The translations under genes were made by a program, and so were the position numbers. From the NCBI RefSeq assembly GCF_029227855.1, contig NZ_CP074356.1: DNA of 64,000 bases; one strand, 5' to 3'. Within the stretch, counting starts at the first letter, position 1, and each line of letters starts with the position of its first letter. The notes beneath the pieces are model-generated. The model had not been told where the DNA came from, did no database searches, and saw only the letters and a program-made list of their open reading frames with translations. The stretch is from Escherichia coli (GTDB taxonomy: Bacteria > Pseudomonadota > Gammaproteobacteria > Enterobacterales > Enterobacteriaceae). Of the stretch, positions 17,733-20,019 are shown piece by piece.

Positions 17733-17862
17733 ATGAATACTAACGTTTTTCGACTGCTCCTGCTGGGAAGCCTGTTCAGCCTTAGCGCCTGTGTGCAGCA
17801 AAGCGAAGTGCGACAGATGAAACACAGCGTCAGCACGCTGAACCAGGAGATGACGCAACTCA
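17733..17862 (+). pseudogene. yajI: 5' fragment of lipoprotein gene yajI interrupted by an insertion sequence
   Basis: Signal peptide plus lipobox (MNTNVFRLLLLGSLFSLSAC) and about 43 codons match YajI, then the reading frame runs into IS-derived sequence. Confidence 0.8.
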
Positions 17863-17905
17863 TTGACATCCTCCACGCCCTGAAGGACGTGGATCCCTGC
17901 TACGT

Positions 17906-19114
17906 TCAGGCTGTCGCCTGAATCATTTCGGTGGGTTCCTGCTTCAACGGGCGGCCTGACTGCACCATCTCTCCACAGGCAAGAACGGCGTGCCCCGCCG
18001 CTAAAATGTTACGAGCGCCATTTACATCGGCGTTCGCTGTATATCCACATACCTGGCATCTGAATTGACTTTGTGACAGGCGATTTTCTTTCGCTGTATG
18101 ACCACAGCACGCGCAACGCTGACTTGTGTACGCTGGCGGAACAGCAAGCACCTGACCGCCACTCCAGAGCTGCTTGTACTCAAGCTGGCGGCGCATTTCA
18201 TACCAGCCCTGATCCAGTATCGAACGGTTTAAACCTGATTTTGCCCGGACATTGCGCCCCGGCTGGCTGACCGTACCCGCTGCTGACTTTGACATGTTAC
18301 TGACCTTCAAATCCTCAATGACTATCATTGCGTGGTTTTTGCTGACGGTCGTTGTGACTTTATGAAGGTAGTCCCTGCGGATATTTGCGATACAGGAATG
18401 CAGTCGCTGTATTTTGCGTTTCTGCTTCTGCCAGTTGTTGCTGAATTTGACCTTGCGGCTTAACTGTCGCTGAAGTCTCGCCAGCTTCTTCTGGTTTTTC
18501 TGAAAACTGTTTACAGGCTCAAAGACTGTGCCATCTGACAGCGTGGCGAGTTTAGCCACGCCAGCATCCAGCCCGACCATTGATGCTGAAGGGTGAACCG
18601 GAGTTGATACTTCACTTTCTGTCTGAATACTGATGTACCACTTACCGCAGGACTGGCAGACCGTGACATTTTTCACAACACCCGTGACCTGACGGCTATT
18701 CCGGTAGCGCATCCAGCCAAGTTTCGGCAGAAAAATACGGCTGTTTTCCTGATCGAGCTTAACGCCCTGCGGGTAGCGGAATGCATCATTCTGTCCCCGC
18801 TTTTTGAATCGGGGAAAAGCAGCCCGCTTCCGGAAGAAGTTTTTGTAAACCCGCTCAAGGTCTTTCAGTGACTGTTGCAATGGCTGTGAGGGCGAATCTT
18901 TAAGCCATTGCGTTTCAGTGGCGTTTTTCCACTCAACCAGCCAGGAAGCCATTTTCCCGTAAGGGATGTATTTATTACCGGCCTCATGATTCTCATTCTG
19001 AAGCGCCAGAGCACGATTGAAAACGAAACGACATGCGCCTGCGAAGCGCCTCATTTCACGCTCCTGTTGACCACCGGGTCTTAACTGGAATTTAAATGCC
19101 TGTAGTCGTTTCAC
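17906..19114 (-). CDS. tnpB: TnpB (IS605 OrfB-family RNA-guided endonuclease), apparently intact
   Basis: 402 aa, GTG start; RuvC-like motifs [18 protein letters not shown] and [10 protein letters not shown] plus zinc finger CACCGH...CQVCG. Confidence 0.9.
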
Positions 19115-19121
19115 AGGCCAA

Positions 19122-19600
19122 ATGATACTTTGGTCTGTGAAAAAAGAAACCGATATCCGGCGTGGAAGGCATTGTGTTTTCCTGATGCATGTTCACCTGG
19201 TCTTTGTCCCAAATACCGACGCCAGATTTTTGACCATGACGCGACAGAAAAACCACGCACTTACTTTTCAGATGTATGTGCTGATTTTGAAGCTGAACTG
19301 GTTGAAATGGATGGCGAACCAGATCACGTCCATTTGTTAATTAACTATCCTCCCAAACTGGCGATATCCAGTCTGGTAAACAGCCTCAAAGGCGTATCGG
19401 GTAGGTGACTGCGACGAGATCGACCAGATATTGCAGTCAGGTATTACTACAAAGGCGTTTTGTGGAGTCCTGGCTATTTTGCCAGTAGCTGCGGAGGTGC
19501 GCCAATATCCGTCATCCGCCAATACATTGAACAACAGCAAACACCTGGTCAGGTGGAAAACCGCGCCTTATATCCCCGCCCTGAAGGACGGGGTTTTACG
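19122..19600 (+). pseudogene. tnpA: IS605-type tnpA (Y1 HuH transposase) remnant, disrupted by a frameshift and an in-frame stop
   Basis: HuH motif and downstream conserved region (HVHLLINYPPK...SLKGVSGR, then WSPGYFASSCG) split over reading frames with a TGA at 19406-19408. Confidence 0.6.
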
Positions 19601-19614
19601 GCGCACCGGATAAA

Positions 19615-20019
19615 GAAACAGTCAAAATCACTCAGCAAAACAGGCTGAATGCAAAATCCAGCAGTGGGGTTTACCTTCTGCCTGGAGCGAAAACACCAGC
19701 AAGACTGGAAAGCCAGATCGGTACTTTACGTATGTCGCTGGTGAATATTACGCCTGATACAGATGGCACCACCCTGACGCTACGTATTCAGGGCGAGTCG
19801 AATGATCCCTTGCCCGCATTCAGCGGAACTGTTGAATATGGGCAAATTCAGGGAACAATAGACAACTTTCAGGAAATCAATGTGCAGAATCAATTGATTA
19901 ACGCCCCTGCCAGCGTCCTCGCCCCCAGCGATGTTGATATTCCGTTACAGTTAAAGGGTATTTCTGTGGATCAGTTAGGCTTTGTACGTATCCACGACAT
20001 TCAACCTGTTATGCAGTAA
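19615..20019 (+). pseudogene. yajI: 3' fragment of yajI
   Basis: In-frame translation ETVKITQQNRLNAKSSSGVYLLPGAK...IHDIQPVMQ matches the C-terminal part of YajI. Confidence 0.8.

Follow-up and report, generated by a model that had tools for sequence, protein, structure and literature searches.

The 64,000-nucleotide stretch of an Escherichia coli genome analysed here (assembly GCF_029227855.1, contig NZ_CP074356.1; hereafter the window, with positions counted from its first letter) contains at 17863-19609 a 1747-bp copy of the insertion sequence IS609, a member of the IS605 group of the IS200/IS605 family, which interrupts the gene yajI. Two divergent genes lie in this copy. The first, tnpB (insQ), is intact, encodes 402 amino acids and occupies 17906-19114 on the minus strand; the second, tnpA, is the pseudogene of a Y1 transposase and occupies 19137-19553 on the plus strand, counted from its probable true or ancestral start as placed by comparison with an intact O157 copy and with relatives. 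Our subject is the junction between these genes, which we propose is probably a compact promoter that serves both directions and yields leaderless mRNAs.

The identity of the element is clear from its Y1 TnpA, its TnpB domains, its hairpins, the absence of a target duplication and its near-identity to IS609, and a preliminary description of the genes as tnpA and tnpB of an IS200/IS605 element is confirmed by the Pfam domains and the IS609 match. The window sequence is 100% identical to that of E. coli JNEC-KY178 and is similar to the IS609 copy in essentially every complete E. coli genome. In K-12 the counterpart is a 1748-bp stretch annotated 'insertion sequence:IS609', with insQ and the pseudogene yncK, and it aligns throughout.

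The tnpB reading frame can begin no further upstream than the GTG at 19114 (listed among the open reading frames, with CAC at 19112-19114 on the plus strand). Read from this codon, TnpB contains three Pfam domains, all above their curated cut-offs: the helix-turn-helix domain HTH_OrfB_IS605 (PF12323) at residues 1-48, which cover profile positions 1-47 of 47, OrfB_IS605 (PF01385) at 162-277, and the zinc-ribbon domain TNB (PF07282) at 304-370. Residues 3-376 align to the ISDra2 TnpB structures 8bf8/8exa, with residue 3 pairing with residue 3 (E = 7e-54). To compare junctions we assembled 80 related loci from gamma- and beta-proteobacteria, which gave 69 unique junctions for start codons and spacer length and 74 for the hexamer and heptamer statistics. 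The first tnpB codon is ATG in 65 of the 69, and the N-terminus M[KQ]RLQAFK[FY]xLxP is kept as protein in these relatives though the DNA varies. The start of TnpB at GTG 19114 is confirmed.

The start of tnpA is less obvious. The Prokaryotic Genome Annotation Pipeline (PGAP), applied to JNEC-KY178, places tnpB at GTG 19114 and tnpA at an ATG at 19122-19124 on the plus strand, exactly as in the preliminary description, and the sequence agrees that 7 bp, AGGCCAA (19115-19121), lie between these two codons. The homology of tnpA with its relatives, however, begins at GTG 19137, and the codon at this position is ATG in 66 of the 69 unique junctions. On this alignment GTG 19137 is probably the true or ancestral start of tnpA, and if it is, the meaningful spacer is 22 bp (19115-19136) and not 7. 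A spacer of 21-23 bp between the tnpB start and the conserved tnpA start is found in 66/69 unique junctions, so the earlier statement that the two starts are almost back to back holds as far as their closeness is concerned, but its figure of 7 bp depends on ATG 19122. Judged by this conservation, the nearness of the divergent starts is not a product of chance. Both start codons are ATG outside the Escherichia clade and GTG in the IS609 lineage.

The spacer itself reads AGGCCAA-ATGATACT-TTGGTCT. When the relatives are aligned on the tnpA start, a motif A-n-TATA-n-T (ATGATACT in the window, 19122-19129) is conserved among them, followed by TTGG(T/C)CT and then by ATG. The central motif can be read as a -10 hexamer on either strand, as TATCAT on the minus strand (19122-19127) and as GATACT on the plus strand (19124-19129), the two being offset by 2 bp. 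Each lies 7 nt upstream of a GTG, so that the tnpB signal of the window is TATCAT, TTGGCCT and GTG, and the predicted tnpA signal is GATACT, TTGGTCT and GTG. We scored the relatives for hexamers that carry A as the second base and T as the sixth and that lie 6-7 nt from the tnpB start or 6-8 nt from the tnpA start. On the tnpB side such a hexamer is present in 66/74 unique junctions (TATAAT in 34, TATCAT in 11, TATGAT in 8 and TATACT in 7), and on the tnpA side in 71/74, where the sequences are mostly TATACT (31) or TATAGT (10), followed by CATACT (8), GATACT (5), TATAAT (5) and others. No Shine-Dalgarno-like sequence was found before the conserved start of either gene, in the window or in the relatives. 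A hexamer placed 6-8 nt upstream of a start codon is expected to direct initiation of transcription at the codon's first base or immediately beside it, and this arrangement points to leaderless mRNAs.

The two flanks of the shared motif differ in their conservation. The heptamer directly 5' of the tnpA start, TTGGTCT at 19130-19136 on the plus strand, is almost invariant: in the form TTGG(T/C)CT, six of the seven bases show 93-97% conservation over the 74 junctions, which exceeds the conservation of neighbouring coding positions, while the 6-7 nt adjoining the tnpB start vary freely. The heptamer is a possible discriminator or regulator-binding site. A related clade of three loci (L079, L081 and L083), in which TnpB begins MIRTFQYRI, has a longer spacer of 42 bp (2051-2092 in L079). 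The L079 spacer holds a complete tnpA promoter, TTGTCA-17 nt-TATAAT-7 nt-ATG, and this backs the leaderless interpretation.

Direct evidence on transcription comes from the K-12 copy. Romero et al. 2014 (PMC4681348), working with strain BW25113 and the reference U00096.2, list in their Table S2 the transcription start site (TSS) 'FWD_(II)-1501681', class II denoting a 5' end that is enriched by tobacco acid pyrophosphatase (TAP) treatment but has no obvious step-up in global RNA sequencing. Kim et al. 2012 (PMC3415461), who sequenced products of rapid amplification of 5' cDNA ends (5' RACE) enriched with terminator exonuclease (TEX), report the same position in Tables S1 and S4 as a TSS of ydcM (b1432), 1501681 on the plus strand, with 14 reads and a 5' untranslated region of 0; their Table S4 counts ydcM among the leaderless mRNAs and gives an upstream string ending ...CAGACCAAAGTATCATTTGACCTG. 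Position 1501681 of U00096.2 corresponds to 1503657 of NC_000913.3, which is the G of the insQ GTG and the end of the 51-mer of Kim et al. The conversion uses an offset of +1976; racR on one side of the locus and dicA on the other both yield this value, and the 51-mer agrees with it. Forward coordinates were taken as 1-based, the first entry, 148, being flagged as a RegulonDB match. We take the start site at 148 to be that of thrLp.

In two independent published datasets, then, a 5'-triphosphate end of K-12 insQ coincides with the first base of its GTG, and insQ mRNA is leaderless by this measure. The corresponding 51-mer of the window differs from that of K-12 at a single position, -4 relative to the tnpB start, where it has G instead of A, and from this homologue, placed by two 5'-triphosphate-selective maps, we infer that the window copy also makes a leaderless tnpB mRNA with its TSS at 19114 (minus strand), the G of the GTG. 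On the grounds of sequence conservation we predict that the tnpA mRNA is, or was in the ancestral element, likewise leaderless, with its start at 19137. A search of Cappable-seq supplements and of those of PMC12825309 returned no TSS entry for the IS609 junction, and our literature search, which included leaderless mRNAs together with IS605, found no paper on the expression of IS609 (insQ/ydcM). The leaderless ydcM/insQ start is thus already contained in published supplementary tables, and we found no paper that discusses it.

We hypothesize, and consider it likely, that the gap of IS609 forms a compact sigma-70 core promoter, pseudo-symmetric and bidirectional, which gives rise to leaderless mRNAs. 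The shared A-n-TATA-n-T core would serve as the -10 element of tnpB on the minus strand and of tnpA on the plus strand, and with each hexamer 7 nt from its own start codon, RNA polymerase would initiate on or beside the first base of that codon. Both mRNAs would lack a leader and a Shine-Dalgarno sequence, and any -35 element or upstream contact would fall within the opening codons of the other gene. The core transcripts would diverge from points 23 bp apart (19114 and 19137) and would not overlap. The ATG at 19122 would have no function as a start and would owe its existence to a T-to-G change in the -10 core that both strands share.

Several observations weigh against this proposal. Neither K-12 dataset (Romero 2014, Kim 2012) reports a TSS in the tnpA direction at the spacer, which leaves the tnpA half of the model to sequence conservation, and the relatives that supply the motif counts share ancestry and are not independent observations. 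The sole TSS assigned to yncK (Kim 2012), 482 nt upstream and inside insQ, is backed by 2 reads. The tnpB start is itself weak in K-12, with its 14 reads and its class II assignment, and these data are carried from the K-12 copy to the window strain by near-identity. With the thresholds that it used, a simple sigma-70 scan called no promoter in the spacer. Translation of leaderless mRNAs in E. coli starts most efficiently at a 5'-terminal AUG and much less so at GUG (PMC9031893), and both IS609 genes begin with GUG, unlike the relatives, in which AUG is found in 65-66 of 69. Since both starts are GTG and both hexamers depart from consensus, leaderless translation is expected to be weak, and a leaderless IS609 RNA may yield little TnpB. 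Finally, Kim et al. 2012 (PMC3415461) list a second ydcM start at 1501325 (+), 356 nt upstream of the GTG and supported by 28 reads, from which most tnpB and omegaRNA transcripts could derive.

This second start bears on the strongest of the alternative explanations. The preliminary description had concluded that no intergenic promoter space exists, that both promoters must lie inside the opposite gene, and that mutual interference or antisense control follows; in its full form this explanation places each promoter entirely within the coding sequence of the other gene and holds that the mRNAs overlap in antisense and that control is by interference or antisense pairing. The homologue of the second insQ TSS is position 19469 (minus strand), inside and antisense to tnpA; the published 51-nt upstream string equals window 19469-19519 with no mismatch. 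An antisense transcript thus probably covers about 110 codons at the beginning of tnpA; initiated at the K-12 site it would cross the tnpA start, and its 28 reads exceed those of the leaderless start. The 2-read yncK start inside insQ would be its counterpart in the other direction.

Long transcripts across the junction would also have a structural consequence. The plus strand at 19109-19142 reads TTTCACAGGCCAAATGATACTTTGGTCTGTGAAA, a near-perfect palindrome of 34 bp (14 + 6 + 14) with arms at 19109-19122 and 19129-19142 that are 93% complementary, and it covers both start codons together with the second codon (AAA) of each gene. As RNA the minus strand would fold into a hairpin of -15.5 kcal/mol and the plus strand into one of -19.1 kcal/mol, both significantly more stable than shuffled sequences (z = -4.2 and z = -6.1, respectively). 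Folded in this way, read-through RNA such as the long-leader tnpB transcript would hide its start codon within the stem, whereas leaderless RNA would lack the 5' arm. We speculate, by analogy with other insertion sequences, that the hairpin may limit translation to transcripts from the element's own core promoter; such a role would be specific to the lineage, as only the Escherichia clade has a strong palindrome, which is weakened in pPEC422_6, the plasmid variant, and missing from a beta-proteobacterial relative. A simple scan flagged the junction hairpin as terminator-like, a role that we rejected because no T-run follows it. A smaller 6-bp hairpin at 19098-19118 shows a single compensatory change in the plasmid variant, but distant relatives do not preserve it, and the 34-bp palindrome supersedes it.

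Against promoters placed wholly inside the opposite genes stand the TSS exactly at the tnpB GTG and the conserved -10 sequences inside the spacer, which also contradict the claim that the intergenic DNA has no space for a promoter. The promoter at 19469 has an extended -10 (TGGCAAAAT) that is restricted to the Escherichia clade and lost in most relatives; it depends on an Escherichia-specific codon choice in a conserved YFA motif and so is not a conserved design of the family, and we rejected the upstream antisense promoter as a family feature on this ground. The internal start in the tnpA direction is barely above noise and too weak to interpret, and a regulatory effect of the antisense overlap is putative. 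We consider it unlikely that this scheme describes IS609 as a whole. Part of it survives in our preferred explanation, since a promoter, a leader and a ribosome-binding site do not fit into the spacer and the -35 or upstream parts must lie in the opposite gene. Antisense transcription inside tnpA likewise has support from the K-12 data, but the core transcripts would not overlap and antisense control is not a necessary consequence of the geometry.

A second alternative takes ATG 19122 as the genuine start of IS609 tnpA, with a gap of truly 7 bp and a leadered tnpA mRNA that starts inside tnpB. Both PGAP and the RefSeq IS609 TnpA (WP_000604943.1, 143 aa, MILWSV...) use this codon, which is a better start than GTG and is preceded at a distance of 4 nt by AGG (19115-19117), a weak Shine-Dalgarno-like element; ATGATA is also present in relatives from Xenorhabdus and Buttiauxella. 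In the window the ATG opens a short reading frame whose product begins MILWSVKKETDIRRGRH, and it would add five non-conserved codons (MILWS) ahead of GTG 19137. Most relatives, however, have ATT, ATC, AGT or a similar triplet at this position, and in them no start codon stands in frame ahead of the conserved ATG. In pPEC422_6, a plasmid copy that is 89% identical, the triplet at 19122 is ATT, the codons at 19137 and at the tnpB start are both ATG, and PGAP itself places the tnpA start at the equivalent of 19137. The Pfam match to Y1_Tnp starts at residue 18 of the long TnpA, so the five extra residues fall outside the domain. On comparison with the common ATTATACT form, ATG 19122 is limited to a few lineages and arises by a T-to-G change, and since it forms part of the tnpB -10 hexamer as read on the other strand, no coding role is needed to account for it. 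We therefore regard a functional start at 19122 as rather improbable, and the RefSeq IS609 TnpA appears to carry five spurious N-terminal residues.

In the window tnpA is no longer functional. Three lesions set it apart from the intact O157 copy, whose TnpA matches Y1_Tnp (PF01797) with E = 1.8e-41: one base pair is deleted after 19208, a T-to-G change makes a TGA at 19406-19408, and a TAG-to-CAG change at 19550 removes the stop codon. PGAP flags the gene in JNEC-KY178 as frameshifted with an internal stop. Since tnpA is dead and tnpB intact, the element is tnpB-only and non-autonomous.

The last alternative, that tnpB truly begins at an internal methionine 20 codons downstream (Met-21) and leaves about 67 bp for conventional promoters, was raised in the preliminary description and draws on the conservation of this residue in relatives (MRRFAG motif) and on the greater strength of ATG over GTG as a start, but we rejected it as highly improbable because it would remove 20 residues of a domain that spans residues 1-48, and because the ISDra2 TnpB alignment starting at residue 3, the conservation of residues 1-20 as protein with ATG at position 1 in 65/69 junctions, and the K-12 TSS at the insQ GTG all favour GTG 19114.

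The bidirectional core promoter that we favour may have been attenuated in Escherichia. From the combination of GTG/GTG starts with TATCAT and GATACT in this lineage, as opposed to ATG/ATG and TATAAT in relatives, we infer a promoter and starts weaker than those of the wider family, which fits the decay of tnpA in K-12, in the window and in other strains. Such attenuation bears on the near-inertness of IS609 in E. coli. A broader and more doubtful idea is that two leaderless mRNAs arise from a single symmetric promoter of about 22 bp across the whole gamma- and beta-proteobacterial clade, that the orientation in which polymerase binds sets the ratio of TnpA to TnpB, and that TTGGYCT biases this choice. 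If true, such a clade-wide module would be a previously undescribed minimal regulatory unit linking transposition to TnpB homing.

Exact ends of the element were fixed by comparison with the uninterrupted yajI of K-12. The insertion lies between ...GCAACTCA and AT(C/A)AAGAAAC..., and the flanks join exactly in the empty K-12 gene, so that no target duplication is present. It splits the lipoprotein gene yajI into two parts, at 17733-17862 and 19610-20019. The top strand of the element, read from left end (LE) to right end (RE), is the minus strand of the window. Terminal inverted repeats are absent, and imperfect subterminal hairpins of the kind usual in the family, read from the sequence, lie at both ends, at 19574-19593 in the LE (CCCCGCCCTGAAGGACGGGG) and at 17873-17892 in the RE (CCACGCCCTGAAGGACGTGG), with a common stem-loop CC..CCCTGAAGG..GG. 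TTAT is found 5' of the LE in 6/6 IS609 copies examined, in keeping with the family's insertion 3' of a short conserved target. The flank at the LE reads TTGAT in the empty K-12 site and TTTAT in the occupied site; a single-base difference in the allele that received the element, or else a later mutation of the flank, would account for this.

An Rfam scan gave no match at the tnpB/tnpA junction and only sub-threshold matches at the tnpB 3' end. These (HgcC, sot0042 and RAGATH-18) fall over the tnpB 3' end and the RE, at 17850-18033 on the minus strand, which is where an omegaRNA would be expected. Among the relatives, elements of proteobacterial type (75-85% TnpA identity to IS609) occur in two assemblies of Gram-positive bacteria. 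The one on a 2-kb contig of Streptomyces mutabilis JCM 4400 (L024) looks like contamination, and that of Alicyclobacillus tolerans (L045) could reflect horizontal transfer.

IS609 is a known element, and the principles invoked here, a symmetric bidirectional -10 and leaderless mRNAs, are also known; no new mechanism is involved. Conservation of the arrangement across the clade, together with the invariant heptamer, is modestly new. The proposal accounts for the expression of a divergent IS605-type element whose genes are separated by almost no DNA, and it joins two overlooked supplementary-table entries, those for the leaderless ydcM/insQ start, to the concept of the bidirectional promoter. 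For users of TnpB it identifies a likely native promoter, which in most relatives comes with a consensus TATAAT and an ATG start.

The closest known system is the K-12 copy of IS609 (insQ/ydcM with the yncK pseudogene), which shares about 98-99% identity with the window copy, along with the divergent genes, the 22-bp spacer, the GTG/GTG starts and a decayed tnpA. It differs in its insertion site (ydcL-ydcO versus yajI here), in its tnpA lesions and, within the spacer, in the one base at -4 of the tnpB start. ISDra2 of Deinococcus radiodurans is more distant. Its TnpB is homologous over the full length from the N-terminus, and it too has a Y1 transposase and subterminal hairpins. The flank 5' of the LE is TTAT in IS609, and in ISDra2 we take it to be TTGAT. 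Unlike the genes of IS609, tnpA and tnpB of ISDra2 are arranged in tandem on one strand.

Fold-back structures in IS10, IS50 and IS200 guard against read-through expression, and in IS200 tnpA is controlled by a stem-loop in the 5' untranslated region that hides the ribosome-binding site and by the antisense RNA art200. The hairpin over both start codons in the Escherichia clade and the antisense TSS inside tnpA recall these elements. In control of the IS200 art200 or IS10 RNA-OUT type, a stable antisense transcript overlaps the site where transposase translation begins and has a regulatory effect. The hairpin and antisense promoter of IS609 are not conserved across the family, and their regulatory role is putative.

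Leaderless mRNAs are rare in E. coli and enriched among regulators of mobile elements (PMC4681348). In lambda cI, Tn1721 tetR, racR, dicA and ymfK, as in insQ, the TSS is the start codon, no Shine-Dalgarno sequence precedes it and the gene is part of a mobile element; the leaderless start of IS609 is GUG, a poor one in E. coli, whereas its relatives use AUG. For the two-way promoter the nearest parallel is the work of Warman, Grainger and co-workers (PMC12825309), in which a pseudo-symmetric -10 region serves both strands and the TSSs are mostly 18 bp apart, with 10 and 23 also common. We found no mention of the IS609 locus in that paper or its supplements. Unlike the promoters described there, that of IS609 would give two leaderless products from start codons that abut it, and its TSS is seen in one direction only. 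Of the features of a bidirectional promoter, the dual-strand -10 is present in IS609 and the minus-strand TSS is seen in K-12, while the separation of 23 bp is only predicted. Like those promoters, IS609 has a symmetric core between divergent and functionally linked genes, and its predicted TSS spacing is one of the common values.

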